Assembly: GCA_026066175.1 (NCBI GenBank)
Contig: GCA_026066175.1_4721.1
Source of the DNA: a phage
DNA length: 64,000 bases
Direction: 5' to 3' (one strand)
Positions 30,165 through 51,898 of this stretch are shown in pieces. A program made the translations under genes and the position numbers. Within the stretch, counting starts at the first letter, position 1. Each line of letters opens with the position of its first letter. The notes below the pieces were generated by a model. That model was not told where the DNA came from and did no database searches. It saw only the letters and a program-made list of their open reading frames with translations.

Positions 30165-30210
30165 AACAACCTCTTTTCGCGGTTCCCTGTTAAACGTTTT
30201 CTATAACGCC

Positions 30211-30248
30211 ATCAAGGAGGTAATATAAGCGTGAATAATTTTGGATTC
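30211..30248 (-). promoter_or_regulatory. Candidate phage early promoter, copy D
   Basis: Plus-strand ggaggtaatataagcgtgaataatt matches the motif shared with copies A to C. Confidence 0.35.
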
Positions 30249-30366
30249 CTGCTGAGTCATCGCTCAGCATGCAAGGCATCCCGCCGAAGCGAGACACCTT
30301 GCACTAACGGAAAATACTCGCGTTACCTTCTGAATCGAAGACCCAGAATGCGATACTAAAGCATCA

Positions 30367-31155: not shown

Positions 31156-31229
31156 TTTCAGCCTCGTTACGTAGTGTGAATCAATTTCTGACTTCAGATG
31201 ATAGTCAATATTAGTTAAAAATTACAGCC

Positions 31230-32018: not shown

Positions 32019-32029
32019 ATCACTCCCTC

Positions 32030-33175
32030 TTATAGCGGTAACGTATCAAGCCATGCAGAAACCTTCAGGGCATCAACGTTCGGATATTTATTGCGTACAC
32101 GTTCAACCAATAAACGCTTCACGTTGTCTTTTGTCAAGTCCCCACCTTTCTCGATAACGTTGTTAACAAAACTGTTCTTTAATAACGATTGGTTATTTTT
32201 GGCATCGGTTTTAATCGACCAAATGAAACCTGGGTATAAAGCAGGAATAGAACGGAACGTTTTCGCTGCATCATCTTCCTTATCGCAACGGATTCGGATA
32301 TGATCCCCTTTTTTCAATGAGGCAAGTTCCCGTTCCAAAACACGTACGATTTCATCGCCAACAAGACCATGCAATTTTATCGTCTTGTAGACATCGGCTT
32401 TCTTGTTCTCAACGAACTCCCATTGGTCATTGAACGATTCGGTTAATGCGTATCGAAGATAACCTTTCGGACCTTCTTCTCCATGCGCAAGACGTCCGAA
32501 CGAACCTCCCACCATGATACGCCCTTTCTGCGACTGTAAGTGAATATGCCCACTTACAATCCATCCTTGCGTTTTCTCCACCATCACGTTATACGCATCG
32601 CTGCTATGCACACATGTTGCTTTTAACGCTTCGGGTGGTAGTTGATACTCAAACGCACCGTGCATCAGAATAAAGTCGGGCGATCCTTTCTCATCAATGA
32701 GTTTGTTCACAGCTGCTAACGTCACGTCTGGGTCATGGCTGTAGTTATCAGGAAGATAAAGCACTTTCAACCCGAAGTCTTCATCGACCATGCAGAGATC
32801 GTCATAGTAACGAACTTTCGCACCGATTTCCATGACTTCATTCTGTTCCACAAACCACTGGCTTTGCTTCTGATCGTGTAAGTTGGTGCCCTCAAGAAAG
32901 ATCAACGTAATATCGTGTTTTCTTGCGTATCTTAACAGCCAGGTACCCCAGGCACGAACAGCAACCACATCGCTTGTTACAAAGGTCGTAATACGGTCGA
33001 AGACATCACCACTGAATGTAATCACGTCGAGTAACGCCGGGTCCTCTTTCGTGATGTAATAACGCAGCTGGCTAATCAGGTTTACCGTTGGCGTTTGACG
33101 ATGGATAAAATGAATATCCGATAAATTGATTCCTCGTAATACCCCAGGCGTTTTATTTCGGCTGAAGTCTCGCAT
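32030..33175 (-). CDS. Calcineurin-like metallophosphoesterase, Mre11/SbcD-like nuclease candidate
   Basis: Ordered motifs LSDIHF, FSGDVFD, EGTNLHD, LMHGAF and VSGHIHL. Confidence 0.45.
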   Translation of the reverse strand: MRDFSRNKTPGVLRGINLSDIHFIHRQTPTVNLISQLRYYITKEDPALLDVITFSGDVFDRITTFVTSDVVAVRAWGTWLLRYARKHDITLIFLEGTNLHDQKQSQWFVEQNEVMEIGAKVRYYDDLCMVDEDFGLKVLYLPDNYSHDPDVTLAAVNKLIDEKGSPDFILMHGAFEYQLPPEALKATCVHSSDAYNVMVEKTQGWIVSGHIHLQSQKGRIMVGGSFGRLAHGEEGPKGYLRYALTESFNDQWEFVENKKADVYKTIKLHGLVGDEIVRVLERELASLKKGDHIRIRCDKEDDAAKTFRSIPALYPGFIWSIKTDAKNNQSLLKNSFVNNVIEKGGDLTKDNVKRLLVERVRNKYPNVDALKVSAWLDTLPL

Positions 33176-33951
33176 TAGAATTCCTCTAAATCGTTGCTGC
33201 TGATCGTCCCGGTTGTCGACGGAATATTGCTACGACCTGCTGTTGTCGAAGCCGGTGCGGCCAGGTTCAGTCCGTTCAATAACCCACGCTCTTTTACCGT
33301 ACGACGTGAGCCGTCACGAACATCATAAAGAGGTACGTTATAATGGTCGAAAATCCGAAGCCATTGTACGTAATCCGCAACCACATGTTCTTTGCTCTCG
33401 TTCGGCGCAAAACGATCGAGTTGGTGGTCAACGTAAGCTTTTGCGCTTTCAGGATTGAAATTGTACTGTCGGCGGGCCTTGTCCACCATCGCAAGAAAAC
33501 AGGTGTTAGGGTCGCGGTTGATATACGAACGCGTTCTGATGAAAATCGCTGGGACCGTAAACAGAACCTTGTTGTTATTTCCATCAGCAACAATGTTAAC
33601 AGCACGGTGTGGCTGACCGGCGATTTTACACCAGTCGTGAACGATGGTACTATTACTCAACATCTCTGCGTATTCAGGGTCCTGCGAAAACATGCCTGCG
33701 AACGGATGCAGGAAATGTCTCACGAACAACGATTCAGGCAGGATGTTGGGACGCGTCATCTCCTGTAACCCTTTTCGTAGAAGCTCGCTGTTGTCGACTA
33801 ACTCCTGCCATATGTCCGGTCGTGTTTTCGGAATAGAAGGATCCTGAGCGCGGCGGATACGTTCTTCCTCGTTTACCACCACTACCCCAGCCGGATACCC
33901 TAGTAAATCCGTTCCTTCGTTAACGTTGCTGTTAGTTTGGCGCGCCTTCAT
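33175..33951 (-). CDS. Hypothetical protein (258 aa)
   Basis: ORF on the gene strand. Confidence 0.4.
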   Translation of the reverse strand: MKARQTNSNVNEGTDLLGYPAGVVVVNEEERIRRAQDPSIPKTRPDIWQELVDNSELLRKGLQEMTRPNILPESLFVRHFLHPFAGMFSQDPEYAEMLSNSTIVHDWCKIAGQPHRAVNIVADGNNNKVLFTVPAIFIRTRSYINRDPNTCFLAMVDKARRQYNFNPESAKAYVDHQLDRFAPNESKEHVVADYVQWLRIFDHYNVPLYDVRDGSRRTVKERGLLNGLNLAAPASTTAGRSNIPSTTGTISSNDLEEF

Positions 33952-34339
33952 TTACTTCCTCCTGCCATTTAACAAAGTTACCGCGTTCAGATCGCAAAAC
34001 ACCGCTTAAATCGTACGACATGCCTTTCTCTGTGACAATCCCTCCAATCTGGAGATCGACACGTTCCGTCGTTGAATCAATATACTTAACACGGACTTTT
34101 AGTTCCACGCGATCATAATACCGCATTAAATAGTCGTACAACATTCGATACGTCGCATCTTCTAATTTAGGTGCGCTGTATTGCGATGTTGCAATCAGGT
34201 ACGGTAATGAAACGATGGAACCTTGGTAACAATACGATTGGGAGTAGTTCGATATTGCAAAATTGGTCATGAGTCCATCTAGCTTCTTACCTGACGCTGT
34301 TAAAAAGCTTGATAGTCCTGGTAATGGATTCGACGCCAT
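33932..34339 (-). CDS. Hypothetical protein
   Basis: Start trimmed to ATG 34339..34337, preceded by GAGGAG; this removes the apparent overlap with 34353..34805. Confidence 0.4.
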   Translation of the reverse strand: MASNPLPGLSSFLTASGKKLDGLMTNFAISNYSQSYCYQGSIVSLPYLIATSQYSAPKLEDATYRMLYDYLMRYYDRVELKVRVKYIDSTTERVDLQIGGIVTEKGMSYDLSGVLRSERGNFVKWQEEVNEGAPN

Positions 34340-34352
34340 GAGGAACTCCTCG

Positions 34353-34805
34353 TTATTTTCGGTTGAGCGCTGCCAGCGTTTCGTAATCAGGCATGTGCCC
34401 CAATTGAAGATCAACAGGAACAGATGTTTGTGCCGCTGGTCCGTGGAATATTCGTTTATGCATATCGATATACCCGCATTCCAAACAAACAACATCAGCC
34501 AATTCCGACGGGTGATGTGGCGGGTCAATCCGTAAACGTTTATAATATTCCAACTGCCACCAGGCATGGAAATAGTTGTTGTATGCTGCTGACTTCTGGT
34601 TCGCGCATTTAAGTCCGTAAAGCACCCAAAGCTCAGCCATGAATTTCTTCATGTTTTCAATCGCGGGTACATCAGGTTTCATCACGGTAGAAATAAAAAG
34701 CAATGGTGAGTTATTATCACCAAAACAACCTTGTAGTGTATTACCAAAACGTTCAATATCCAGGCAAAGATACTCGCTTGATTTACCCTCAAAATGAACC
34801 GTCAT
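34353..34805 (-). CDS. Hypothetical protein (150 aa)
   Basis: ORF on the gene strand. Confidence 0.4.
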   Translation of the reverse strand: MTVHFEGKSSEYLCLDIERFGNTLQGCFGDNNSPLLFISTVMKPDVPAIENMKKFMAELWVLYGLKCANQKSAAYNNYFHAWWQLEYYKRLRIDPPHHPSELADVVCLECGYIDMHKRIFHGPAAQTSVPVDLQLGHMPDYETLAALNRK

Positions 34806-34929
34806 CGATATCTCCCATTAAAAACGTTTTCTATTTCATAGAGTGCTGGAAATTCGTAGAAAATTACAAAAAGAAAAAGAAGGGCGCGGCCCCTCCCCAC
34901 CCGAGGGCAGGGAGAAACCGCAGATATCA

Positions 34930-35394
34930 TTAAACCAGCGCCGCGATAACGTCGTTGACGTTGCGACCGCGCAGCTCAGCCGCTAAGCGAATCACTTCAT
35001 CCAGGGAACGCGTTGTACGAATCTTGGCCACTTTCCAATTTTCAGGATACTGTTCGAAGTTCAGCAGCCAGGTCATGACTTTCGCTTGTTCCACACCGTT
35101 CAGCTTGATGGTCGTACGCGGATTGGCTTTAAACCACTTCTTGCTTAACTGTGCCATACGGCGAACAGGGTAAGCATAAGCGCGAGTCCAGTCTTTGGAC
35201 AGATTGTCGAGTAATTCACGATAGCTGCTGTCGTAGTCTTTGTTAATACGACGTAACAGCCAGTTGGCGGTCATCTGGTAGAGTTTATCGTCTTCACGTA
35301 AACGCATACCTGCCATCGCTAAATAAACAATAAGGCCCGCACCCATAATCAGAGACAGGATAAACAGAATTTGAGTTTCTTGAGCTAATGTCAT
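34930..35394 (-). CDS. Putative membrane protein with one N-terminal transmembrane helix
   Basis: ILFILSLIMGAGLIVYLAMAG hydrophobic segment; start trimmed to ATG 35394, preceded by GAGGAT. Confidence 0.4.
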   Translation of the reverse strand: MTLAQETQILFILSLIMGAGLIVYLAMAGMRLREDDKLYQMTANWLLRRINKDYDSSYRELLDNLSKDWTRAYAYPVRRMAQLSKKWFKANPRTTIKLNGVEQAKVMTWLLNFEQYPENWKVAKIRTTRSLDEVIRLAAELRGRNVNDVIAALV

Positions 35395-35485
35395 TTTACT
35401 ATCCTCGGATTTATTAGGATTTGATTTCCAATATAAGGACAACGCCTTATACAGTCGATTGATGTTGTACATCGCATCTGTGATG

Positions 35486-35525
35486 TATCACAGAAGTAAT
35501 ATAGCCGTGAAAATTATTGTATTAA
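35486..35525 (-). promoter_or_regulatory. Candidate phage early promoter, copy B
   Basis: Plus-strand cagaagtaatatagccgtgaaaattattgtatt is nearly identical to copy A. Confidence 0.4.
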
Positions 35526-36361
35526 CGTGTTCTCCTGTCACGATGGGTATATGACTGTAATCCGATGTCCATATGCGGTAACGTCAATGTTTGCCAGATC
35601 TGTTGTGCGTAGCGATCGAGTGTGTAGTCGTTGGTAACGCAGTCAACAGGTTCAATGAGATGCGTCGTATATTGACTTTTCTCTGAAAACGGATCAACGT
35701 TAGCAGTATCTCCTAGTCCGCTTTTCACCGTGAAAACAAGACGAGTAACCACCATCGCTTTACGTTGTTGCTCGTTATAACGAAGGCCACGATAAATCGC
35801 ATAGCTCGCGCCTTTCAGGCTTCGGGTATAACGAAGGTCAGATGTTGTCCCGCCAATTTGATGCAACATCCAGTCTAATGTATCCCGCCAGTATTTATCA
35901 TCCGTGTCAGGTACCTCGATACCGTAACGGGTGGGAAGCATATCCAGAAGCAGTTTGTAGAGTCCACGACGCAAGCCGTGTTCTTCTGTTTCTGATAACA
36001 TCTTTCCTCCAACATAACGAGAAATACGTGTTCGTAAATACGCACGAATAAACATGCACGTCATTACTGTTTTCGAGTGGCTGGTGATGTCTTCAAAAGT
36101 ATCAACACTGAAACTCGTTTCGATCAACCGTCCGTTAAAGTACAATGCAGCTACATACATCGCGCTACTGCTGTCTCGGTCGATGTTCAAACGACCGCAG
36201 ATATTGGCTGCGTCGTTCATGGTAAATTCGAGTTTGTCGTGTTCAATACGGTAGATAATATCTTCTTGGGTTGCCAGGCTCGCAATACGACGATAGCCTG
36301 GAGTAGTACGTTTAACGCTCATAATGGTCCTCGATTTCAATTTTAGGATTACAGACGGCAT
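35522..36361 (-). CDS. Hypothetical protein (279 aa)
   Basis: ORF on the gene strand. Confidence 0.4.
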   Translation of the reverse strand: MPSVILKLKSRTIMSVKRTTPGYRRIASLATQEDIIYRIEHDKLEFTMNDAANICGRLNIDRDSSSAMYVAALYFNGRLIETSFSVDTFEDITSHSKTVMTCMFIRAYLRTRISRYVGGKMLSETEEHGLRRGLYKLLLDMLPTRYGIEVPDTDDKYWRDTLDWMLHQIGGTTSDLRYTRSLKGASYAIYRGLRYNEQQRKAMVVTRLVFTVKSGLGDTANVDPFSEKSQYTTHLIEPVDCVTNDYTLDRYAQQIWQTLTLPHMDIGLQSYTHRDRRTR

Positions 36362-36364
36362 AAA

Positions 36365-36390
36365 CCCTCCCCGCGCTATGCAGGGAGGGT
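36365..36390. terminator. GC-rich hairpin (ccctcccc / gggagggt)
   Basis: Inverted repeat in the intergenic gap. Confidence 0.45.
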
Positions 36391-36412
36391 AGCCATTGGT
36401 TGTCTTCGCCGG

Positions 36413-37051
36413 TTAGCCTAATTTACCTCCGGCGATGTTCGTGAAGTCTTCACCATCAGGGACCTGCAACAGAATACGTGCCATGTCCCAGTTGGTCAAT
36501 GTGATTGCTTTATCATCGATACTCAGTTCTGGTAGGTCGAGCTCATGATCATCGAACTCGTAGGAAATGCTCCATGTTTCATCAGTTTTAGGATCAGTTA
36601 TCAGCACACCGTCTGTTACACGCATGTAATCAGGGTGCAGCTCATTACTGAACGTGCTGAACGGATCGGTGTAACATTCAGCATAACCCTCGATCTGCTG
36701 ACGCTGTGCCTTCGTACGTAACTCAGGACACGCCATGATCAGCTGTCGGGAAATGCCGTTAGCCGCTCGGAAATCTTCCACGGTGATGCACGGCATCACC
36801 ACATCGTCATGGAAGATATTCTCCGACTGTCTCAACAAGGTCTTACGAAGTTCAGTATAGTTGATCTGATTGAACGTATCGAATGTTGCTAACGATTCCG
36901 CGTAAAAATGCTTTACGTGTTCGTTTGCGCCACCGAGACTGTTCATCAGCTTATGACCATACTCCATAAAGCTTTTATCGAGCCCAGTATTCATTTCTCC
37001 GAACCGTAGTGCACGATAGCTGTCTCGTCCACCTGTAAATATTTGCGCCAT
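36413..37051 (-). CDS. Hypothetical protein (212 aa)
   Basis: Immediately downstream of the beta-prime gene; N-terminus TGGRDSYRALRFGEM...FMEYG loosely recalls the beta GGQRFGEME...EAYG block. Confidence 0.4.
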   Translation of the reverse strand: MAQIFTGGRDSYRALRFGEMNTGLDKSFMEYGHKLMNSLGGANEHVKHFYAESLATFDTFNQINYTELRKTLLRQSENIFHDDVVMPCITVEDFRAANGISRQLIMACPELRTKAQRQQIEGYAECYTDPFSTFSNELHPDYMRVTDGVLITDPKTDETWSISYEFDDHELDLPELSIDDKAITLTNWDMARILLQVPDGEDFTNIAGGKLG

Positions 37052-37066
37052 TACAGGCGTCCTCCT

Positions 37067-37304
37067 TTAGCATTGGTTATTGATTGCTTCTATTTCATCG
37101 ATATACGGTTCTACGTCATCGCCCTCCACGAATTCGTTGAACCAACAGTCAATCGTTGAGATAACCGGTGACTGATGTTCACATTTCTTAGATACCTTAA
37201 ACGGAACGTTGTTATCCATCATACCGAGTTCGGGTCGGAATCGCCCGAAATGTTTCGCAGTCCAAATGTCTGGGACGATATGGTTGTTCATAGCGTCTCC
37301 GTCG
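37067..37304 (-). CDS. RNA polymerase beta-prime N-terminal subunit, exon 3
   Basis: Frame is open upstream of the track ATG back to the proposed 3' splice site; the exon begins c-gac-gga-gac (xDGD) and continues AMNNHIVP...LGMMDNN, which aligns with beta-prime DGDQMAVHVP...LMMSTNN. Confidence 0.6.
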
Positions 37305-37683
37305 CTGTTTGTCGACTATATCTTCATCTTCATTGCGAAGAGACTCTCGTTTGGGTTTGTGTTTAACAAAGCCTACTCTACTCAACATCGCGTCTTTCGA
37401 TAGTCTGTGAGCACACATCTTAACGAATATTCGTGGGTTCCTACAGACAGGTGAATATTCTTGTTGAGATGCTTCGCTGCGGATTATTCCCGTCCTACCT
37501 CTTTTACCATACCCAGTTCATTACGCTGGCCCTCATCGATGTCACCATGATGAGTTGGTGTGTAGTCCGATTACAGAAACTTCCCGTCAATTAGAGAGTT
37601 TTAACTATGCTCCTGTTACCAGGAACCAGATCCCGACGGCATCAATAAATCAACGTAAGTTATTGATTTAATTGAAAAAACTG
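37305..37683 (-). ncRNA. Group I intron 2 (about 379 nt)
   Basis: Minus-strand core elements AAUUGACGGGAAG (P), AAUAAUCCGCAGCG (Q), GCUCACAGACUAUCG (R) and GAAGAUAUAGUCG (S). Preceding exon ends in U, intron ends in G, and an internal GAUCUG can pair with exon CAGAUU. Confidence 0.6.
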
Positions 37684-37702
37684 AAATCTGCATTATCTAA
37701 AC
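37684..37702 (-). CDS. RNA polymerase beta-prime, 19-nt mini-exon (exon 2)
   Basis: gtttagataatgcagattt supplies (C)LDNADF when joined to the flanking exons. Confidence 0.55.
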
Positions 37703-38071
37703 CTTCGATATGGTTCGCTACGCCATACCCGCACATACGTGCAGCTTACGTCTTTCACGTAAGAAGAGACTATATCTTTCACCCTCAGCTTTACCTGTTA
37801 GGGGCTCCCATTTCGGCGGTCGTTTGACCGGTGGTTTCCCACGCCGCTTGGCCCTAACGCCCGTAAGCGATAGTCGTTGAGCACATCTCCGTTCTGGAGA
37901 CTTCGCTGCGGATTCCCCAATCCTTACTGCTTTTACCGTACCTGAATGATTAGTTCAGCCCCATGCTCTGTTCCCAGGCATGGTTGGTGAGCAAGGCTCT
38001 AAGTAGGTTCCCGCTATTAGAGAGTTCCTCGTGATAGCATTACTGTGTCACTGGGCCTAATGACCCTTTCA
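37703..38071 (-). ncRNA. Group I intron 1 (about 369 nt)
   Basis: Minus-strand core elements AAUAGCGGGAAC (P), GGAAUCCGCAGCG (Q), GCUCAACGACUAUCG (R) and GAAAGAUAUAGUC (S). Proposed P1 pairs exon AUGAUCU with GGGUCAU across a UGAAA loop; intron ends in G. Confidence 0.55.
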
Positions 38072-39305
38072 AGATCATCACGCTTAACCCGATGGTATTA
38101 TCCTGCGGGTCGCGTTTAACCTTGGTGATTTCAAGACATTGGTTACTGCTACGGTCAAGTGATGGATTTCGAACAAAGCCACACACAATCCCATCGAACG
38201 GTGTATCAGCAATAAGCTCGTCATGCAGCTCGCTCATCATCGGATGATAATTGCGGACATGCTCTGCAACGAACGCACGGGCTGCTCTTGGTGAATAACC
38301 ACGATGGAATAACTTGGATTGGATATGTTCTTTATTGGTTAGTGTAAATGGTGCGTACGGAAAATGCAGATGATAATAACGATGGTTTGCTGTTATCGAA
38401 CTGATGACCGTACGTGTGGTGAATGGATGTAATGTACCTAATATGTTCTTACGTGTGATCCCTTTCTTCTTACCAATGAACTCATCGAAAATCGCCGAGT
38501 GATACTGCAACAGCTTCAATTGCACTTTCGCCATCCAGTTTTCTTTCTTTCTGGCGCTTAGTGGCGTGGTTGGATGATAGATGCTATTCAATGTTCCGAT
38601 GGCGTCTATCGCACCTTCCATTTTGCTGTCAGCGTAACGTCCTGTTGGCGTGTTCTCGATCACGAACATCATGGCTGCAGGAAAGCTGATGTACTGACTG
38701 AAGAATTTATCCCGATGAATACGGATGAATTCGCGTAGCGTATCAACCTTCTCCATGTTCTTCGGTCCACGTAGTGTTGGGCCTTTATACAAGATCTCCA
38801 TGATACGATCGAAGTTCTGTATAAAGCTATTTATACCGCGTCGTATTCCGAATACATCGAATTGCTGTTCCAGATAGTTCTTAAGTTCGATCGGTCGTTT
38901 TACGTTCGGACGGTAACTGGCATCAATGAGCCACGTCATCGTTTCAAAGCTTTTGATATTCAACTCGCTTGCCAGCACGAGATGGACCAACGGGTTAATG
39001 AACGCATCGATACCTTCCGGTACGCGCGCCCAGACCGTTGAACGAATCTCTTGTTCTGCTGGATAAGTGACAACCGTTTTACAGTTCGGGCACACCGTCC
39101 CTAATAACTCACCGCGATTATAGAAACCACAACCGCATTGCGGGGTGATATCCAAGGTATCGCTAGAGTAAACACGGGTGATGAAACTGTTTAATTTCTT
39201 CTTCTCTTCCACGACCTTCGTATCATAATCGTTCAACAATATCGGCGTAAAAGGAAGTTCTGCGAGCTGTCTATCGAAACTGACGATATCGAGCATGATG
39301 GCCAT
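38072..39305 (-). CDS. RNA polymerase beta-prime N-terminal subunit, exon 1
   Basis: N-terminal zinc-binding CGCGFYNRGELLGTVCPNC and RNPSLDRSSNQCLE matching beta-prime RQPTLHRLGIQAFE. The track ORF continues to a stop at 38040 through intron sequence (LKGSLGPVTQ). Confidence 0.6.
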
Positions 39306-39347
39306 GGGGTATCTCCTGCAAATGAAAAAGAACGTTAGGACGTATAA

Positions 39348-39371
39348 GGGAGGGAGGTTGCCCTCCCTCCC
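39348..39371. terminator. GC-rich hairpin (gggagggagg / cctccctccc)
   Basis: Immediately downstream of the stop of the 39398..41296 gene. Confidence 0.5.
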
Positions 39372-39397
39372 GTCAGTTTACATCGAACGTTCTTCCA

Positions 39398-41296
39398 TTA
39401 GAACAGGTTGAATGCCCCGCCCATGCCGTTACCGCCCACATTCGGACGATCGTTACGTGCGTAGATGTTACCGCTGATGGTACCCAGACCACGAGCACGT
39501 GCTGCCATGTTACCACGAACAGCGGTACCTGCCAGATGCTGGATGTTCTCAGGACGGATGGTGAAGCCTGCTTCAGCAGCCGCTTCAATCAGTGCCTGCA
39601 GCGCCAGCGGATCGAAATCATAACGCATCGCCCAGCCAGTTTGTTCCCAGCTACCAGACAGAACGCGGTCGATGATTTCGTGACGAGCAACCACACGCTG
39701 AGACATCGACATATCGGTACGGTCGAAGCTGTCTTCCCAAGCTTCTACGGTATCCGGGTTAGTGATGTTCATCATGTACAGATCGTCCATATCACGAATA
39801 TCGTGACGGTTACCGTCCTGGTGGTTGTAGTGACCCAGCGGGATACGGTTACCGGTCGCGTAGACCAGCGGTGAGCCGTACGGATATTTCTTGCTGAAGC
39901 AACCCAGGGTAACATCATCGAACGCACGGAAGAGGGCTTTGTAGCCTTCGGAGTATTCCTGTACGTCCCCTTCAACATTACCCGAGAAGATCTTCTCAGC
40001 CGCCGGGATCATACGCAGCAGCCAGCTGTACTCACCTTCTTCTGGTACGTCGATAGAGATCAGCAGAGACGGATACAGAACCTGTTGCAGGAACTTGTAA
40101 ATCTGCTCGTTGGTTTGCGTAGACAGATCCAGCGGTGCAGTCACTTCAGGATCCAGCACCATCGCCAGAGCACCTGGGTTATGCGGACCAATACCACGAG
40201 CTGCGTTGCTGATTAAAGACTGCGCCCACGCCATGCCGCTGTTCAGCGTAGCGATGGTACCAATCAGACCCAGCACGAAGCTGTTCGGCGTGAACGCATC
40301 CAGTTCCAGCGGATACATGCTGGTCATTACGTAGCGCGGTTGGTACTGTACAGTTGGCGGTACCGGATAACCGTTAACCAGAACAGGACCTTGCTGGAAG
40401 GTCGGGTTCTGCGGGCTGTAGGTCAGATCGATATAACCGGTGGATGCAACCAGACGCTGCTGGCTATCGTAATCGCCCATCGCTTGACGGATGCGGTTAG
40501 AGATAGTTACAGTAATGTCGGAGCGTACCGGGTTACCCGCGATATCGCTATCCTGCATGCCGCTGGTGTTATACTGAACGCTACTGATCGGCTGATCGCT
40601 TGCCATCATACCCAGGTTGAACTGAGGCAGGCCCAGTCTGTCAGCAAAACGCATTTCGGTTGCCGTCTGGATCGCGTTATCCGCTGCGGAAAGCAGGGTG
40701 GTTGCCAGATGCGCAGATTCAGCAGTGATTTCATTGGTCACAACAGCCAGACCAGCGATACGTACCGTACCGTTAGCTTTACCACCGATAGCCGCATACA
40801 TCGCTGCCATGACTTCGTTGATGAACGTGCCGTTCAGGTTATCCACCCAAGTACATGGTACCAGGATGTTACCGTGAGGACCACGTTCTTCACGACGTGG
40901 CAGCGGAGCCAGGCCAGCAACCAGCGGAAGGACGTAACCGAAGAAGTGGTTATGATCACCCACTTTTACACCGCTCATCACAACCAGAGTCGGATACGGT
41001 ACGCTGTACTGATTCGGGTCAACCGCAACAAAGATGAAGTCGTCTTTGAACTGGGTATCTTCCAGATATTTCTCCATCAGACGACGGAGATTCAGTACCT
41101 GCTCGGAGCCGGTATTACGGCTGATACGACGGCTCAGTGTACGGTTAATCGTACGCATCGTATGAGTTACTTTAGGACGGTCAGCAAAATCTGCAGCGGT
41201 TTCGACCGCCTCGTTAGCATGCTGCGCCGTGCGGGTTTCAGCCACGCGGATGTCTACGTTATCGTTACCGTTATTGTTACGTACGTCTAAGCCCAT
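39398..41296 (-). CDS. Candidate chimallin-like phage nucleus shell protein (632 aa); major capsid protein not excluded
   Basis: Size of about 70 kDa, high-expression-like codon choice, its own promoter motif and terminator, and proximity to a PhuZ-like tubulin and phage RNA polymerase genes. Confidence 0.45.
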   Translation of the reverse strand: MGLDVRNNNGNDNVDIRVAETRTAQHANEAVETAADFADRPKVTHTMRTINRTLSRRISRNTGSEQVLNLRRLMEKYLEDTQFKDDFIFVAVDPNQYSVPYPTLVVMSGVKVGDHNHFFGYVLPLVAGLAPLPRREERGPHGNILVPCTWVDNLNGTFINEVMAAMYAAIGGKANGTVRIAGLAVVTNEITAESAHLATTLLSAADNAIQTATEMRFADRLGLPQFNLGMMASDQPISSVQYNTSGMQDSDIAGNPVRSDITVTISNRIRQAMGDYDSQQRLVASTGYIDLTYSPQNPTFQQGPVLVNGYPVPPTVQYQPRYVMTSMYPLELDAFTPNSFVLGLIGTIATLNSGMAWAQSLISNAARGIGPHNPGALAMVLDPEVTAPLDLSTQTNEQIYKFLQQVLYPSLLISIDVPEEGEYSWLLRMIPAAEKIFSGNVEGDVQEYSEGYKALFRAFDDVTLGCFSKKYPYGSPLVYATGNRIPLGHYNHQDGNRHDIRDMDDLYMMNITNPDTVEAWEDSFDRTDMSMSQRVVARHEIIDRVLSGSWEQTGWAMRYDFDPLALQALIEAAAEAGFTIRPENIQHLAGTAVRGNMAARARGLGTISGNIYARNDRPNVGGNGMGGAFNLF

Positions 41297-41356
41297 TTGG
41301 GAATCCTCTTTTTCTTAACTTTTAAATGACGTCATTGAATCAGCTTTTTCTCGCTC

Positions 41357-41395
41357 ATTCACCTAGGTAATATAACCCTGAAATTTTTTTCAATA
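41357..41395 (-). promoter_or_regulatory. Candidate phage early promoter, copy C (upstream of the chimallin-like gene)
   Basis: Plus-strand cacctaggtaatataaccctgaaattttttt matches copies A, B and D. Confidence 0.4.
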
Positions 41396-41534
41396 TTGGT
41401 GCAACCTTATTGAACGATATAAACCCCCAGGTGAATGCTGCCGAGAAGCAACATTCTATCTACATATAATCAGGATATGTCTGTAAACTTTTACTTCTCG
41501 TCATATCCGTTTACTATCTTCTTACGGAGTTCGT

Positions 41535-42629
41535 ATGTTTCGTGTTTTAAATAACCTCCCGCGAACATCATCGGGTGTGCAACCCATCCCTCAGAAAGAC
41601 TACCTAATACGCGAAGTTCAAAGAAACCTACAGACAATCCAGAACCACTATCAAGGTTTTACCTTCGCGGTTCAGAGCGATCACATCCTTGCATTGCTGC
41701 TCGCACAGCTCCCTATGAGATACGACATCTCAGTACAAACTTACTACGACATGATCGCTGACCTTACACCAGAATTGGGGAATCGCGTTAAGCTAACAAC
41801 AGCGCGATACGCGGGTAAGTTATTTAACGGTGCGTTCTATCCAGGATTGCATGAAGCGATCATCGCAACCAGCGAAAGCCGTCTTATATCGCGTGACGTT
41901 CTCGATAACTGGCGTAACTGGTCTCCGGTCAGAATCGTGACACACCCCTACGCGAATCTTCGTTATATCCCTCTGCATCAAAAGCCGGTTGAAGAAGGAC
42001 GGGGTTTTGCAGTTATCATGATCGATGTTCCTTTATTAGCATTGCAGTATCGCATGTGGTCATTGGTCATGGGTCACAACGTCGATGGTAAATGGGTGGT
42101 TAAAGAACCCGTTACAAGTTTCATTGCCAGTTTTCCTTTGGTCAATGCGTTATATACACACAACGACGTGGCTATCCGCAATCGTTGCTTATGGGTACCT
42201 CCGGCTAAGAATCCGCTCAAGTCACCGATTTACGTCAACGATCTGGATAACGTTTTCAGTCAAGTGGTGCTGACCGTCCAACATCAGCTATTACGAAGAA
42301 AACGTAGTTACACCGACATGTTGAAACAGATACCGAGTTTATACGAGGATCAATTTCAAGCAACACGCATGGGTTACACGATCGATCTTCGACAAACACG
42401 GTGGGCAAGGGATCTCGGATGTTTGTCTTTATGGCAACAGCTTGTTACCTTGCAAAACGTTTCAGAAAGCGTCGGCTTCAGTAGTCAAACCGATAACGAC
42501 TTATATCGTGCAGCCGATCGAAGTCTAAAAGAAGGGAACTGGGAATCGTCTCCTTTACCCGGTGATCTACGACGTGAGGTTACCGCACAGGTTGCTGATC
42601 TTTTAAAAATTCTTCCCGCTGGTGTATAA
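41535..42629 (+). CDS. Hypothetical protein (364 aa)
   Basis: ATG preceded by GGAG; diverges from the chimallin-like gene; followed by a hairpin. Confidence 0.45.
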   Translation: MFRVLNNLPRTSSGVQPIPQKDYLIREVQRNLQTIQNHYQGFTFAVQSDHILALLLAQLPMRYDISVQTYYDMIADLTPELGNRVKLTTARYAGKLFNGAFYPGLHEAIIATSESRLISRDVLDNWRNWSPVRIVTHPYANLRYIPLHQKPVEEGRGFAVIMIDVPLLALQYRMWSLVMGHNVDGKWVVKEPVTSFIASFPLVNALYTHNDVAIRNRCLWVPPAKNPLKSPIYVNDLDNVFSQVVLTVQHQLLRRKRSYTDMLKQIPSLYEDQFQATRMGYTIDLRQTRWARDLGCLSLWQQLVTLQNVSESVGFSSQTDNDLYRAADRSLKEGNWESSPLPGDLRREVTAQVADLLKILPAGV

Positions 42630-42631
42630 TC

Positions 42632-42663
42632 CCCTCCTCCTTCCCTGATGGGTTGGAGGAGGG
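42632..42663. terminator. GC-rich hairpin (ccctcctcc / ggaggaggg)
   Basis: Lies between convergent genes. Confidence 0.45.
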
Positions 42664-42668
42664 TTATG

Positions 42669-44822
42669 TTACTCTGCGGTTTCTTTTTTCGGTTGGTAGC
42701 TTGCAGCGATATCTTGGGCTAACAGTGTGTTGTTTTTATTCGAAATGAAAATACCGTAACTTTCCATTAATGCGTAATACGAGCGAACGAGTGTAGAAAT
42801 CAATCGACGAATATCCATACCTTGGATGAAAATATCGGGAAGCCCAGAGGCTTCGATCACCGGTAATGGTATCGTTAAATTGCTTATCGTTTTCTTATCG
42901 TTACGTACAATCCAATCACGGAAACGTTGTTGTAACCCTTTATCCTCCCAGGAATCAATCCAATCATTAAGAAGCGTTTTGTTCTTCGTTGCCAATGGTA
43001 CACGAACCCCAACATAAGGCGGTTCAGGGCAATGGCCGTACGATTGCGCAAACACCTCTTCCCACATGTCGTACGACTGCTTGGTAACCGCAACATGGGG
43101 TTTTACTTTAACGCGTGTTAAGAAATCAGGATCGCCGCGTTTCATCGATTCCACGATTTCGTTTTCTAACGCGATGATATCATCAAGTACCAATCTGATA
43201 CTGATCTTCTCGTTACGTAACAGTTTATCCATGATACCGCACATCATGCGCTCAACACGTTGTACGATCATTTTTGGTGCTGATGCGTCACGCATAACGG
43301 GACCTTTCAATTCCAGTTTCGGCGGATTGATTGGAACCCCTTCACGCATGGTCATGTAACCGTAATAGTTTTTACCCATTGAAGTCAACGACAGAATCAA
43401 GAACATATACTCGTTCTTCATTTCCATCACGTACATATGCTCTTTCGCGACGCCGATATTACCCGAACACATTGCCATCAGATGAACCGTAATCTGCGTA
43501 ACCAGGTAGATAAGCGTATTCGCTAAGCGCGTTGAAATCGGATTGATCTCCATGTTGCCAAACCGCCACTGAACCCACTCCTGACAGGTAAATACCGTTG
43601 AGTCGGTATCAGACAACACACCCACTTCACGGATGGCTGACGGAAACGCATAAACACCAGCGGGTTGGTTCTCGGTACGCCAGAACGCCATAATCAGGTC
43701 AGCGTAACTCTGGATACGCTGCAACATTAACTTTGTCGTGGCTGCGGTGAGACGATAACCCAGTTCGTTGCCTTTTTCTAACGCAACGTAAATCGCTTCA
43801 CCATTTAAGAACTCGGTACACTGTGCTGTAATCCAGGCAACCGTGTTATTATCCATGGATGCAATAATGGCTTTCGCCTCTTCCATCGTTTCAACAGGTT
43901 CGGTGGCCAATTCACATAACGAATCAAGGAACCCACGAACAAACTCAGGGTTCAGTTCGCGTAACGAATACAAGTTGTTGCTATACATGTAACAAGCACG
44001 TTCCAACGGCGTTAAGCCGTTAATCAACTCCTGAATGACCAGTTCTTTTTCCGGGTCGAAAATATAGCGATGCAGGCATTTTGATACATTAGCCCAAACC
44101 TCTTCCGGTGTCGGGTAATGTAGCTGGTATTTTACCATCACCTGCTCAATGGCTTTACGGTCGCTGTTACGGACAATGCTTACGATATTTTCAATCGCGA
44201 TATCACAATCGTAATAATGAAAATTACCTGCCAGGAACCGTTCGTTATTCGCATTCGCTGAACCGGAAGCGCATCGGCATGTCGTGGTTAAACTCGGGTG
44301 TGCGATCGGGTTATAAAAAGGATTGAATTTAGATGCCTGTGTTCCCGACAAACTGTTGTTGTCTAACTTGGTATTGGTCTGTCGTTTATCATGCAGTTCC
44401 GCTTCGTCTTTACGTCCATGCGCTTGTGCAATAGACATCTGTTTCTTTTGTTTCTTACGCAGCTTACCGTTTTCAACCGCAAAGTCGCTTAACACGCTGG
44501 AACGTGTTTCACGTGGATAACAGTTCGCCCATACCGGGGTAATGATTAAATTATTTTCTTTGATATCGTTGATATACTGACTGAACTTAATAAGTTCTTT
44601 TTCGCGGTTCCCTTCTGTACGTTGTGTTAAAACAAGACAGTCGGGATCGACCATCCCATGTGCACCACCTGGCTTGATGGTATCAAGTACGAACCGTAAT
44701 GCTTCTTGTTGAGAAATACCACGCATGCGCATTAAGAACAGGGTATAATCCTGCACCGCTTCTTTGGTCATATCCAACGTACGACCGTATCCGTTTTCGT
44801 CGTAAAAGAACGGATTTTCCAT
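42669..44822 (-). CDS. Large hypothetical protein (717 aa)
   Basis: Long ORF; an isolated LSDTDS is reminiscent of polymerase motif C but not sufficient for a call. Confidence 0.4.
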   Translation of the reverse strand: MENPFFYDENGYGRTLDMTKEAVQDYTLFLMRMRGISQQEALRFVLDTIKPGGAHGMVDPDCLVLTQRTEGNREKELIKFSQYINDIKENNLIITPVWANCYPRETRSSVLSDFAVENGKLRKKQKKQMSIAQAHGRKDEAELHDKRQTNTKLDNNSLSGTQASKFNPFYNPIAHPSLTTTCRCASGSANANNERFLAGNFHYYDCDIAIENIVSIVRNSDRKAIEQVMVKYQLHYPTPEEVWANVSKCLHRYIFDPEKELVIQELINGLTPLERACYMYSNNLYSLRELNPEFVRGFLDSLCELATEPVETMEEAKAIIASMDNNTVAWITAQCTEFLNGEAIYVALEKGNELGYRLTAATTKLMLQRIQSYADLIMAFWRTENQPAGVYAFPSAIREVGVLSDTDSTVFTCQEWVQWRFGNMEINPISTRLANTLIYLVTQITVHLMAMCSGNIGVAKEHMYVMEMKNEYMFLILSLTSMGKNYYGYMTMREGVPINPPKLELKGPVMRDASAPKMIVQRVERMMCGIMDKLLRNEKISIRLVLDDIIALENEIVESMKRGDPDFLTRVKVKPHVAVTKQSYDMWEEVFAQSYGHCPEPPYVGVRVPLATKNKTLLNDWIDSWEDKGLQQRFRDWIVRNDKKTISNLTIPLPVIEASGLPDIFIQGMDIRRLISTLVRSYYALMESYGIFISNKNNTLLAQDIAASYQPKKETAE

Positions 44823-45131
44823 AAACCCTCCAAAAGTCGTGTAGCCTATCTACATCATCTCGTATATCTGTTAAAAAAGAAAGACGGCATAAAAAAGAAC
44901 CGATCCAGCCGAAGCCAGATCGGTTGAAAGGATATTAATAACAGGGAAATGAAAGTGTGACTGAAAGATATCGATGATGTTCGTGAAATAAGATCTCTCG
45001 TATACAGTGATGCCAGATCAGAGGGAGGTTGTAAACGAGAGACGGTTCACTAAAGGAGTAACAAACGCGAACCTATCTTATTTCACCGATGGCGCTAACC
45101 ACTCAAAATATATAGTGCTGTATGTAAAAGT

Positions 45132-45545
45132 TTACTGATTAATCAAGTCGTTAGCAACGATCTTGGTGTAGCCTGCTTGATTAAGAATCTGATTAATTTT
45201 TGTTACATCTGTCGCATCATCAATAACGATGCTGGGTTTATAAATCAACGTCTTGGTAACAACGATCGTACTCTCCTTAATCCAGGGAATCCCTAGGATC
45301 ACATACTCGCCATCAGCGGTGATGACCTCAACGTAGTTATATTTCGTTGGATCATTCGGAACGCTAGACGGAAGCCGGGAATAGATCTGCTGATGGATAG
45401 CGTCAACATCACGGCCGTTACGTACAGCGGTACGGTAGTTGTATACCGCACTAATTTCCACTCCGTTGAAGTTAACCCCAAGTTCTGAGGCGTACACATC
45501 AAAACTCACAACAGAGCCAATCTTTTCTAAATCAGAAGCTGGCAT
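45132..45545 (-). CDS. Hypothetical protein (137 aa)
   Basis: ORF on the gene strand. Confidence 0.4.
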   Translation of the reverse strand: MPASDLEKIGSVVSFDVYASELGVNFNGVEISAVYNYRTAVRNGRDVDAIHQQIYSRLPSSVPNDPTKYNYVEVITADGEYVILGIPWIKESTIVVTKTLIYKPSIVIDDATDVTKINQILNQAGYTKIVANDLINQ

Positions 45546-45556
45546 AATAGCATCCT

Positions 45557-45955
45557 TTATTCAAAAATGTATTCGTATCCGAACGTTGTCGCTGACCAAA
45601 CTCGGATAGATGATAATGTTCCGCCACGATAAAACGTTTTTGTAAATTCCATATCCTGGACAACACGATAATAAACACGTGCGATGATACGTACAACGAG
45701 ATTTCGTGATAACGATCTCTCTTCGCAGTATTCGTCGATAAAGTCATCGTCGATATCCGATAAGACAACATCTGCGATTTCTTGCAGGAGATTCCTCATC
45801 AGCATCTGCTTTCCTTCGATACCCCATCCCGACAAACAGTAATCGTCTTCTGCCTGACTGTAGATGTCATAGACCGCCTGTTCAAGCAGTTGCTCAAGAT
45901 AGTGATCATCGCGTTTTATAACATGGCGACGGCGCTCAGAGGCGTATTTTTCCAT
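45557..45955 (-). CDS. Hypothetical protein (132 aa)
   Basis: ORF on the gene strand. Confidence 0.35.
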   Translation of the reverse strand: MEKYASERRRHVIKRDDHYLEQLLEQAVYDIYSQAEDDYCLSGWGIEGKQMLMRNLLQEIADVVLSDIDDDFIDEYCEERSLSRNLVVRIIARVYYRVVQDMEFTKTFYRGGTLSSIRVWSATTFGYEYIFE

Positions 45956-46398
45956 CCTGTGTTTCTCTTGTTAGGCGTATGTATTAACGACGCCACCGTC
46001 TTTTCTGGATCATCCCATAATGCGCGACGAAAACTGGACACCACCATAACGGTAGGATAGATCTGTACAACCTCCCAACCGTAACGATGTGCATTCGTCG
46101 TGCGCCCAACATTGAACAAACACAATTGATTCAAGAAACAGAGCTGCATCTTCGTAAACAATAGCGTGTCTTCACGTTTCACGTAACCGAGGATATAGGC
46201 GTTCTCGAACGCTTCACGTGCTAAGACAGGACGGTTAAGATAACGTAGCGACAACACCAACAACGCGGTGATACGCAACGGATCTTCGGGTCCTTTTAAA
46301 TCATTCAGCTCATTCTGCAACCAATCCGGAATCGCCACCGTTAGGCGATAGGTGTCTGTTCCACGATCAACCACATTTAATGTTGAAAAAGGCAACAT
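45916..46398 (-). CDS. Hypothetical protein
   Basis: ORF on the gene strand; start uncertain. Confidence 0.35.
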   Translation of the reverse strand: MLPFSTLNVVDRGTDTYRLTVAIPDWLQNELNDLKGPEDPLRITALLVLSLRYLNRPVLAREAFENAYILGYVKREDTLLFTKMQLCFLNQLCLFNVGRTTNAHRYGWEVVQIYPTVMVVSSFRRALWDDPEKTVASLIHTPNKRNTGWKNTPLSAVAML

Positions 46399-46990
46399 AC
46401 CCGTGAATTCCTTCTAACTCGAGGTCGTTCTCGTCGGTTTTCGGTAAAAGTCCGTTAGCTGTCAGCATCCTTGTCATCGCGCCATCGAAGCACGGGAAGA
46501 TAAGGTTAATAGTTTCATTAATCGCATCAACGTAGCTATACACCGCTTCGAAGTAATCGCCGTCATGATCGATACTCACCAGATCCTGGCATAGGTCTTC
46601 AGCAATCGTTTCATATACCGGCGGATACCACGAATGAAACGGTCGCTGCATACGTAACGACCAATACTCATACGTCGTATACTGAAGCACGTCATAGGCT
46701 GATACGTTAATGCGGTCAAAGAAAGCATACGTGTCCATGTGTTGGTACAACATCGCCAACACGGTTTCCAAACACACAGCTATCCGCACGCCATCATCTT
46801 TCCCGTTAAGGAAATTCGGTTTCTGCCGGTAACGCACGAATGCCGATGGCCTTGATTGTACTATTCCACCACCAACCATAATGTCATACTCGTATCTAAC
46901 GTGAAATTGAAATGCCACCAATCTTCCACGCGTGGAATCCAGGTGCGGAGGATCTGATGAACCTCGCTTCGCATCACGGACAACCGACAA
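46367..46990 (-). CDS. Hypothetical protein
   Basis: Overlaps neighbours in other frames; start uncertain. Confidence 0.35.
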   Translation of the reverse strand: MSVVRDAKRGSSDPPHLDSTRGRLVAFQFHVRYEYDIMVGGGIVQSRPSAFVRYRQKPNFLNGKDDGVRIAVCLETVLAMLYQHMDTYAFFDRINVSAYDVLQYTTYEYWSLRMQRPFHSWYPPVYETIAEDLCQDLVSIDHDGDYFEAVYSYVDAINETINLIFPCFDGAMTRMLTANGLLPKTDENDLELEGIHGYVAFFNIKCG

Positions 46991-47418
46991 CGGAAATCAA
47001 ACTTCTCATCACGACCATAGTCTTCATGCAGGAAAACCTCATCCAAAACAAACTCAAGTTGTGTATCGACATCACGACCCGAGATATTTCGTTTGTACAG
47101 ATACAGTTCGATCGTGTCATAAAGCAACGTATGGATATCGTAATTGCCATTCGGTGAGAAATAAGGTAAGCGTTCATCGAACATCAAAAACAGATATTCA
47201 CTGTAGTTTAAGAACGGGATGATGTACCGACGTCCTGTCTGTGGTGCGCGAATATGTATCGAAACCTGACCTGGACGCGGAATCGCCGACGGTTTAGCAT
47301 CGTCTCTCTGAAATTGCTCTAAAGATCGCAACAAAGGTGGCCGCATTGTAACTCTCCAACGCCCAATTGTAAGGCCCTTCCAACATGTGTTCCCATACGT
47401 GAATAAACTCACTACCAA
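46861..47418 (-). CDS. Hypothetical protein
   Basis: N-terminal part looks like low-quality extension; start uncertain. Confidence 0.3.
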   Translation of the reverse strand: MVVSLFTYGNTCWKGLTIGRWRVTMRPPLLRSLEQFQRDDAKPSAIPRPGQVSIHIRAPQTGRRYIIPFLNYSEYLFLMFDERLPYFSPNGNYDIHTLLYDTIELYLYKRNISGRDVDTQLEFVLDEVFLHEDYGRDEKFDFRCRLSVMRSEVHQILRTWIPRVEDWWHFNFTLDTSMTLWLVVE

Positions 47419-47923
47419 AAACCGGTTCTAACGTCATCGTAAGATGCGTAAGTTCAGAAGCTGCAGCGTGATACGCGTCCACGTGTCTTTCCATCGAAGG
47501 TTCGTCTTCGTTGAAAATACGCTCGGTATCACCAGCACGTTCAATAAGTTCGGTAATGAGATCGATCCAAGTTTCGTGGCATGTCAGTGTTTCCTGTTCT
47601 CGACTTTGTATGCCGATGTCTGCGTGTACGCTGGACTCGAACCGGTCGAAAAGGACCCGAAGAACGTGCACCTTGTCGATGTATTTCACCGTTATCCAGG
47701 AAAGCGGTTGCCATCGACTCAACATCCATCCGGTGCTCGGGAACCCCAAACTCATATAGTACGGGTTGCACGGGGCCAAGGACGGAACGGCGTTGTTTGT
47801 AGCGTTCCTTAACGGCGAGGCCTTGTTTGACATAAATGGGTTCATTGGCGAGTTCTGCGGCTTTTCGTTTTGCGTGGGCCAATCGAAGTTCTTCCAATTG
47901 TCCAAGCCATTCAAATTGTTCAT
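47294..47923 (-). CDS. Hypothetical protein
   Basis: Overlaps 47541..48518 by about 380 nt in another frame; true start is probably internal. Confidence 0.3.
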   Translation of the reverse strand: MNNLNGLDNWKNFDWPTQNEKPQNSPMNPFMSNKASPLRNATNNAVPSLAPCNPYYMSLGFPSTGWMLSRWQPLSWITVKYIDKVHVLRVLFDRFESSVHADIGIQSREQETLTCHETWIDLITELIERAGDTERIFNEDEPSMERHVDAYHAAASELTHLTMTLEPVFGSEFIHVWEHMLEGPYNWALESYNAATFVAIFRAISERRC

Positions 47924-48518
47924 CTGTTAGCTCCTGGGGACGTTCAACAACCACGCCCGATGGGCAGACATTGATCGTAATGTTAATTGATGGCATCGCC
48001 ATCACTCGAGGATTACTATTACGTACACGGATAACATGTTCGGTTGCTGATTTACGATCAACGCAATATTCTGTCTCCTGAAACTCAAATGCTTTTAACG
48101 GTGCTGGTTTTGTTTGACGTTTTGGAACACGGCCAAGATCAACAATATAGGCATAATCGCACACACGTTCTATTCCGTAAATACGGTTATCCGACCAATT
48201 CTTACCAAACAGCTTGTTGTGATGATAAGACAAATATTCGGTTACCATACCCTGGACAACATCGAAGTCTTCTCGAAATTCAGGTTGGTACCAAATCGGG
48301 CCGAGAATATCTGCGAACGATTCATGACGATAGCGGCAATCATGCCGTGTCCAGGTCATCCTCTGATTAAGATCGAAATCAACCAGCAACTCAGTTAATT
48401 GCAGTTTTGCCTTCGGAGAAAGCTGGCGTTGATGATGCAAACTCAGGCAATCGATAAGCGGTAACGAAACCCACGACGCTAACGTATACAAATCGATCCT
48501 GGCTAATCTCTTGGTCAT
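47541..48518 (-). CDS. Hypothetical protein
   Basis: Long ORF; C-terminal Arg-rich tail may be spurious read-through. Confidence 0.4.
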   Translation of the reverse strand: MTKRLARIDLYTLASWVSLPLIDCLSLHHQRQLSPKAKLQLTELLVDFDLNQRMTWTRHDCRYRHESFADILGPIWYQPEFREDFDVVQGMVTEYLSYHHNKLFGKNWSDNRIYGIERVCDYAYIVDLGRVPKRQTKPAPLKAFEFQETEYCVDRKSATEHVIRVRNSNPRVMAMPSINITINVCPSGVVVERPQELTDEQFEWLGQLEELRLAHAKRKAAELANEPIYVKQGLAVKERYKQRRSVLGPVQPVLYEFGVPEHRMDVESMATAFLDNGEIHRQGARSSGPFRPVRVQRTRRHRHTKSRTGNTDMPRNLDRSHYRTY

Positions 48519-48609
48519 ACTCTTTTCCTAAGTCCCCATTGTTTATACACACGATATCTGGGAATAGTTAAAATATACGGCGTAAAACGAAACAGGAGAG
48601 TTTCTCGCG

Positions 48610-48930
48610 TTATTTTCTTCCTCTTTTGATACAACCGATACCCCTCTCATTTAAAGCCTCCCAGGCGCGGTTTATTTCATCTTCGGTTGCTCGCGTATCT
48701 CGCGGAACCACCATCACGCAGTCTTCTATCGGCCAATGCGTAGGACGAGGAGCAGCAAATAAATCGTCCCATTCAAACGTCCATTTCTTCTTCGAACGGT
48801 TATAGTAAAGTGTGAGGTACGTACGCGTATACGCTGGGTAGCCTTGTAACACGGCGAAGTCTTTTCGATCTTGATGTGCTTGATTCCATTCGTTAAAACG
48901 GTTTCTTATTCTTGTCCACCATTTTCCCAT
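48610..48930 (-). CDS. Hypothetical protein (106 aa)
   Basis: ORF on the gene strand. Confidence 0.4.
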   Translation of the reverse strand: MGKWWTRIRNRFNEWNQAHQDRKDFAVLQGYPAYTRTYLTLYYNRSKKKWTFEWDDLFAAPRPTHWPIEDCVMVVPRDTRATEDEINRAWEALNERGIGCIKRGRK

Positions 48931-48987
48931 AAACTCTCCTACACGGCATAAAAGCCTGCCCCGAAGGACAGGCTCATCATGATACTT

Positions 48988-49185
48988 TTAACCTTCCATC
49001 TTCAATGAGGGATGGTTGACGATATGTGCATGTTTGGTTGGGTCATACGACTGATAAGGGAAATAGCCATGCCATTGACGGCCTTGACATTTCGTACACA
49101 GGAACTGACCATCACGGCGTTGATGCTCGTATGCCAATTCAGTGCTATCAACGTGACCGCAACGTTCGCAGATAAACAGCGACAT
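48988..49185 (-). CDS. Small zinc-ribbon protein (65 aa)
   Basis: CERCGH ... CTKC spacing. Confidence 0.4.
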   Translation of the reverse strand: MSLFICERCGHVDSTELAYEHQRRDGQFLCTKCQGRQWHGYFPYQSYDPTKHAHIVNHPSLKMEG

Positions 49186-49201
49186 AGCGCATCTCCATGA
49201 A

Positions 49202-50182: not shown

Positions 50183-50246
50183 GTGAACTCCTAACTTGAT
50201 ATGTATTTAACGCACAATGAATCTTTCTTTACTAAAGGGGTGACCC

Positions 50247-51886: not shown

Positions 51887-51898
51887 GATCGATACTCC

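Follow-up and report, generated by a model that had tools for sequence, protein, structure and literature searches.

A 632-codon open reading frame on the minus strand of a phage DNA stretch of 64,000 nucleotides (hereafter the window) raises two questions, namely which protein it encodes and whether it is expressed as a unit with its own promoter and terminator. A first-pass annotation had named the product a chimallin-like nucleus shell protein from its size and genomic context. The reading frame (39398..41296) starts with ATG, and its product was computed to be an acidic protein (pI 5.1) of 632 aa and 69.6 kDa, agreeing with the about 70 kDa given before; plus-strand reading frames within it, e.g. 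40340..41290 (316 aa), were rejected as antisense artefacts. By homology the gene is identified here as chmA, encoding chimallin (ChmA), the major phage-nucleus shell protein. We consider it nearly certain that the model as a whole applies, i.e. that the gene is chmA, that it would be expressed early by the virion RNA polymerase, that its product would serve as the shell, and that its transcription would terminate at a hairpin with some read-through.

The identification as chmA is based on a full-length structural match, a close orthologue, the only family profiles matched and the gene order of phage Goslar. The 632-aa protein was aligned end to end with the Goslar chimallin of PDB 7SQT (94% identity, 1345 bits), and 591/632 residues are identical to Goslar gp246, which is labelled 'nuclear shell protein' in RefSeq. 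It matched Pfam PF25677 (Chimallin_Phikzvirus; E = 8e-26, 90.7 bits against a cut-off of 27), with residues 21-596 aligned to profile positions 11-591 of 627, and PHROG 4795 (phrog_4795, 'nuclear shell protein'; E = 1.6e-53, residues 25-630), so that the profile comparison with chimallins proposed in the first-pass annotation bore out what size and context had suggested. No other family, and no capsid family, was matched in the Pfam and PHROGs searches; that annotation had looked to an HK97-fold capsid or another unrelated family as the contrary outcome, and chimallin families alone were found. Weaker PDB matches were to the chimallin chains of phiPA3 and 201phi2-1 and to 8igg (deposited as 'Chimallin'). 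With 94% identity to 7SQT and one single-residue gap, the chimallin protomer fold, an N-terminal domain and an acetyltransferase-like C-terminal domain, is predicted from sequence alone.

The genomic neighbourhood conforms to the core gene context of Chimalliviridae, which comprises multisubunit virion and non-virion RNA polymerases and often the tubulin PhuZ. A PhuZ gene (49202..50182, minus strand) was recognised by PHROG 4733 ('tubulin PhuZ', E = 2e-68) and by the PDB entries 9pm9 (722 bits) and 3zbp (phiKZ PhuZ, E = 3e-29), while its Pfam Tubulin score of 30.2 bits stayed under the cut-off of 33; it lies 7.9 kb from the chimallin start, as the earlier estimate of about 8 kb had it. The multisubunit RNA polymerase attributed to the phage was likewise found, with three subunit genes in the window: two of beta type (19008..21047, and 23034..25367 on the minus strand, 777 aa), and the reading frame of the non-virion RNA polymerase (nvRNAP) beta' subunit (38040..39305, minus strand), which adjoins chmA. 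Gene order is that of Goslar, i.e. nvRNAP beta' downstream of chmA, the divergent gp245 upstream, then a divergent family B DNA polymerase gene and PhuZ. In the phage collection the window DNA matched Goslar alone, with 91% identity over the gene region, and the two are collinear, at 86-88% nucleotide identity, over positions 20088..61654, which is as far as the Goslar stretch compared reaches. The gene is thereby assigned, on homology, to a Goslar-like jumbo phage of E. coli (genus Goslarvirus, Chimalliviridae).

The Goslar chimallin (YP_009820873.1, locus tag gp246, termed 'gp189' in Laughlin et al. 2022; PDB 7SQT, 7SQU and 7SQV) resembles the window protein over its full length at the 94% identity given above, with one extra Asn near the N-terminus, and the flanking genes, the promoter motif and the hairpin described below are the same. 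It differs by 40 substitutions, which lie mostly in the disordered N-tail and in the linker of the C-terminal segments, by 9.4% nucleotide divergence in the gene, and by a 14-nt deletion in the intergenic region upstream of the window's chmA. At this position in the chmA/gp245 intergenic DNA (~41493..41494), the window is without 14 nt (ATTACTCTCAATAA or TTTACTCTCAATAA) that are present in three other Goslarviruses. The chimallins of Pseudomonas phages, i.e. 201phi2-1 gp105 (7SQQ), phiPA3 gp53/PhuN (8FNE) and phiKZ gp54, belong to the same family (phmmer E = 9e-11 to 2e-20, residues 63-615), and the Pfam entry matched above was built on them, but they come from another host genus and share very low sequence identity with it, and 19% identity was reported between the Goslar and 201phi2-1 chimallins (Laughlin et al., PMC9365700). 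The phiKZ neighbourhood is alike in two respects: a TATATTAC-type early promoter serves gene 54, and chmA is followed by the gene of a phiKZ gp55 homologue, gene 55 adjoining gene 54 as far as the gene numbering tells.

As to expression, chmA stands apart from the rest of the window in codon usage. Its E. coli-type codon adaptation index (CAI; Sharp & Li E. coli weights) is 0.61, against a median of 0.28 and a next highest value of 0.42 among 52 window ORFs (z = 6), which upholds the high-expression-type codons noticed before. CTG serves 45 of the 51 Leu codons and CGT or CGC 38 of the 39 Arg codons, and the G+C content of the window peaks at chmA. A Shine-Dalgarno sequence AGAGGA was read at 41304..41309 (minus strand), 7 nt 5′ of the ATG. 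This good ribosome-binding site and the strongly E. coli-optimised codons would allow fast and abundant ChmA synthesis by host ribosomes.

Upstream of the gene a putative early promoter motif of the chimallivirus type was located at 41358..41395 (minus strand), composed of an A-rich run followed by TTTCAGGGTTATATTACCTAGGTGAA. Its core 18-mer TTCAGGGTTATATTACCT (41365..41382, minus strand) lies 70 nt 5′ of the chmA ATG and includes the 8-mer TATATTAC (41367..41374, minus strand). The early-promoter motif claimed earlier was thus recovered, and it may be the 'copy C' named there. The 18-nt motif TTCAsGGyTATATTACyT occurs in four window copies at ≤1 mismatch, all on the minus strand and each 23-70 nt 5′ of a minus-strand gene start. 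The chmA copy is the fourth by coordinate, and the other three (TTCACGGyTATATTACyT, minus strand) are at 11613..11630, 30218..30235 and 35494..35511, upstream of the genes 10880..11566, 28578..30164 and 34930..35472, respectively. At ≤3 mismatches, five matches were observed in the window versus 0.25 expected by chance, again all on the minus strand, the additional weak copy (46390..46407, 3 mismatches) overlapping the start of 45916..46398. The bare 8-mer TATATTAC is not enriched in the window (4 found versus 2.4 expected), so the enrichment is that of the extended 18-mer alone.

Conservation among the motif copies reaches well beyond a -10 hexamer (TTCAsGG...ACyT..GTGA), and the chmA motif, its A-rich run and the downstream GTGAA align with the early-promoter consensuses published for chimalliviruses, which are ...TTTRARR_BTATATTACDWHDGTG in 201phi2-1, ...TTTCARRYAKATATTATYWAAGTG in OBP and N1M2, and TATATTAC in phiKZ (PMC7058600, Table 2). 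The TATATTAC core, the upstream T/A-rich element and the downstream GTG are shared with phiKZ-type promoters, from which the Goslarvirus motifs differ by flanks of their own (TTCAsGGy...). Such motifs lie around -10, and the polymerase packaged in the virion is taken to recognise them (PMC7598289). In phiKZ, the primary start site of gene 54 is of the early type with a TATATTAC-type promoter, and a secondary middle promoter was mapped too (PMC8244752). The chmA motif is unchanged in four Goslarviruses (the window, Goslar and two IMG/VR contigs) despite a dS of 0.36 in the gene. Together with the hairpin, which is unchanged as well, this shows constraint.

Downstream of chmA, a terminator-type hairpin was located at 39344..39371 (minus strand), with a 10-bp G/C stem, a GCAA loop and a following TTAT. 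The stem-loop proper, GGGAGGGAGG-GCAA-CCTCCCTCCC (39348..39371, minus strand), lies 26 nt past the stop codon and is enclosed by a weaker outer stem (~39321..39399) that ends in a T-rich run. The extended hairpin folds at -40.7 kcal/mol (z = -7.3), and none of 200 shuffled sequences folded as well, so the strong hairpin described before stands. A custom scan for a G/C-rich stem followed by TTAT returned 8 window sites versus 0.43 expected, the others being one palindromic hairpin counted on two strands (1762..1788, minus; 1767..1791, plus), 13861..13886 (plus), and 21716..21746, 36360..36390, 48948..48975 and 52106..52136 (all minus). This hairpin family provides candidate Goslarvirus terminators. 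Most of the sites carry the tail TTATGCCGT, of which the chmA tail TTATACGT is a variant. The architecture of the chmA hairpin is that of the motif shared by 61 mapped phiKZ terminators, BCCYCCCCHWWDGGGRRGGBYTTATKYYGT (PMC10914365); like those it has a G/C-run stem-loop followed by TTAT, and it differs by a G-run in the 5′ arm and by TTATACGT in place of TTATKYYGT. A simple terminator scan of the window did not call the chmA hairpin, because the T's do not follow the stem directly, and no terminator is annotated at this position in the Goslar record. The hairpin is invariant among the same four Goslarviruses and hence offers no covariation evidence.

We favour the reading in which the G/C hairpin and TTAT would form an intrinsic terminator of the chimallivirus type that ends most chmA transcripts, with some read-through supplying the adjacent nvRNAP beta' gene. 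This gene, encoding the beta'-N subunit (phiKZ gp55/56.1 homologue; 37067..39305, minus strand), is the next one downstream and the probable target of read-through. The intergenic DNA between the two genes is 92 nt long and contains the hairpin, and no early-promoter motif belonging to the beta' gene was found in the 18-mer scan of the window, which makes read-through likely and the hairpin perhaps leaky rather than a full stop. The earlier claim that chmA has its own promoter and terminator thus stands for both as motifs of known classes, their activity being presumed, and is softened for the terminator.

Alternatively, the hairpin might stabilise a 3′-end or processing site, or be a weak attenuator, so that chmA and nvRNAP beta' would make up one early operon in which chmA has no terminator of its own. 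We regard this as possible but doubtful. It would account for a beta' gene that starts 39 nt past the hairpin motif without an early-promoter motif, and for a hairpin tail that deviates from the TTATGCCGT consensus of the other sites. It would also agree with relatives: in 201phi2-1 no promoter was found for the nvRNAP beta' gene gp107, and the only early one near it is situated about 3 kb upstream (PMC11512511), which by gene numbers would be the region of the chimallin gene gp105, and phiKZ gene 54 was described within a six-gene operon (PMC8244752). The same stem-plus-TTAT architecture, however, is found at mapped phiKZ termination sites (PMC10914365), the stem is very stable, and the gap in CAI between chmA and the neighbouring genes is in keeping with widely different levels of expression. 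A tentative proposal, to which we give a minor chance, is that chmA and nvRNAP beta' form one early transcription unit in which the hairpin with its tail TTATACGT is a tuned leaky terminator. If true, one virion-polymerase promoter would serve both genes, with the leaky hairpin fixing the shell protein at a high ratio to the polymerase subunit, and the hairpin could be a dosage device conserved in chimalliviruses, given that phiKZ genes 54 and 55 are adjacent by numbering and that gp105 is followed by gp107 in 201phi2-1.

Transcription of phiKZ is independent of the host RNA polymerase. In our preferred reading of the chmA upstream region, the phage RNA polymerase packaged in the virion would initiate, after injection, at the TATATTAC-type promoter ~60-70 nt 5′ of the ATG. 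Early promoter activity is presumed here from the motifs and from the published relatives, and what the sequence itself offers for early, abundant expression by the virion polymerase is the recurring motif of early-promoter type and the extreme codon adaptation. Reading of the motif by the host sigma-70 RNA polymerase instead, with TATATT as the -10 box, seems very unlikely. TATATT does agree with TATAAT at 5 of 6 positions and a TTGAAA occurs upstream, yet the 13 nt that separate them are too few for sigma-70, and a sigma-70 consensus scan of the upstream intergenic region called no sigma-70-like site. Moreover, the conservation exceeds the -10 hexamer and matches chimallivirus early promoters, and in these phages the virion polymerase transcribes the earliest genes, 'particularly chmA and the nvRNAP', with ChmA ranking among the most abundant early proteins (PMC12908238).

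A comparison with the Goslar gene yielded dS = 0.36 and dN = 0.034 (dN/dS = 0.09), and the 40 amino-acid substitutions, R148C among them, were unevenly distributed. They affect 7 of the 40 N-tail residues (17.5%) and 3 of the 12 residues of the linker between the C-terminal segments (25%), as against 1 of 30 in the stretch resembling C-terminal segment 1 (CTS1); no change falls in the stretch resembling the N-terminal segment (NTS; residues 41-62) or in the last 8 residues. The NTS, CTS1 and CTS2 boundaries were transferred approximately from the 201phi2-1 numbering, with the definitions of PMC9365700, and all three interacting segments were recognised, the changes being concentrated in the tail and linker, which are disordered. 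In the work of Laughlin et al., protomers were shown to be joined inside the tetramer by the N-terminal segment, and tetramers to one another by CTS1 and CTS2; segment deletion abolished self-assembly in vitro, and disorder was shown for the tail and linkers (PMC9365700). This is the substitution pattern to be expected from that chimallin structure. The dN/dS of 0.09, the placement of changes in the N-tail and linker and the retention of the assembly segments together point to functional constraint on chmA. Being 94% identical to the solved Goslar chimallin, the product would form tetramers through its N-terminal segment, and these would be tied together by the two C-terminal segments. The flexible square lattice so formed would be the phage nucleus shell, surrounding the replicating genome and excluding host nucleases.

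That chmA could be a chimallin copy in decay or put to another use, present as inert DNA in an E. coli assembly, is highly improbable: the source record does read 'hypothetical protein' and comes from a bacterial assembly, but the frame is intact, the selection and segment data speak of maintenance, the 64-kb window is collinear with Goslar wherever compared, and the Goslarvirus genomes met with in bacterial assemblies have been described as complete genomes of lytic phages (PMC12768965). An HK97-fold major capsid protein or another abundant structural protein, which the size and the high-expression codons would fit as they would any abundant protein, has practically no chance, being already refuted by the Pfam, PHROGs, PDB and gp246 matches, with no capsid family among them and the full-length 94% match being to an experimentally solved chimallin.

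The exact protein is deposited at NCBI as EKC0517742.1, a 'hypothetical protein' on a 159-kb contig of an E. coli O157 assembly, and the exact chimallin sequence is present in Logan run SRR22175737 as well. Clustering at 90% identity places it among 249 members, from assemblies of E. coli and Salmonella isolates with contigs of ~235-241 kb. This occurrence is consistent with the 'bacterial assembly-associated phage sequences' of the literature, through which Goslarvirus grew from 1 genome to 237, recovered from bacterial assemblies (PMC12768965). Searches of complete E. coli genomes and of PLSDB plasmids with the chmA region returned no match, so that finished genomes give no sign of a stable episome. 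The deposited O157 protein is the shell protein of a Goslarvirus co-assembled with the bacterium. As a close orthologue of a characterised protein of the same genus, whose structure, assembly and role have been worked out in Goslar itself, chmA is in most respects already known, its family, fold, assembly, timing and assembly-borne phages all having been published; what is new is limited to the annotation of one 'hypothetical protein', and it has little significance beyond that correction. Of use beyond this are a clean collection of early-promoter and terminator candidates for the Goslarviruses, for which we found no description of transcription signals in a literature search, and natural sequence variation placed on the solved chimallin structure.

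The beta' gene downstream matched PHROG 2987 and PDB 7ogp_A (E = 9e-60), and its annotated reading frame ends early because the gene is split by introns. Relative to Goslar, it has one insertion and one deletion. Rfam returned two tandem group I intron matches at an E-value threshold (49.1 and 27.9 bits) and nothing in the window at the gathering threshold, the gathering score being 50. By canonical borders, with a U before the 5′ splice site and the intron ending in G, intron A (38062..37697, 366 nt) and intron B (37683..37305, 379 nt), both on the minus strand, flank a mini-exon of 13 nt (37696..37684), with the proposed junctions GGGU|AUAAUGCAGAUUU|CGACGG. The two introns thus interrupt, 13 nt apart, the codons of the catalytic motif YNADFDGD. 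In-silico splicing gives a beta' of 497 aa reading ...MILKGYNADFDGDAMNNH..., which matches the exon sequence of relatives, and predicted splicing restores the universal catalytic NADFDGD motif. Intron A borders taken from BLAST breakpoints (ILKGLDNADF) were wrong, the relatives giving canonical borders and ILKGYNADFDGD; even with slightly wrong intron A borders, splicing moved the end of the phiKZ alignment from residue 414 to 477 and raised its score from 206 to 251 bits.

Intron content of this beta' stretch varies among the relatives. The window has introns A and B, its B being without an HNH gene. Goslar, in contrast, is devoid of A and carries a B with an HNH endonuclease gene plus a further intron D, while one IMG/VR contig (L004) has A, B and D, and the other (L005) has C, at a fourth site, and D′. 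Taken together, the four phages use 4 or more insertion sites in a stretch of about 30 nt. The pattern fits the homing introns known from chimallivirus polymerase genes, for which competition between intron endonucleases has been reviewed (PMC12908238), and the density and the 13-nt mini-exons are striking.

Two further reading frames of the window drew attention. The RNA polymerase frame 23034..25367 exceeds Goslar gp171 (722 aa) by 55 aa, its match in PHROGs begins at residue 79, and the start codon chosen mechanically as the first is probably too far upstream. The protein of 16750..19011 (minus strand, 753 aa), which had no Pfam match at E ≤ 0.001, matches a DNA helicase (phrog_16) in its C-terminal half, and its residues ~115-242 match terminase, primase and DnaC-like loader families simultaneously; these residues might be an inserted mobile domain such as an intein.
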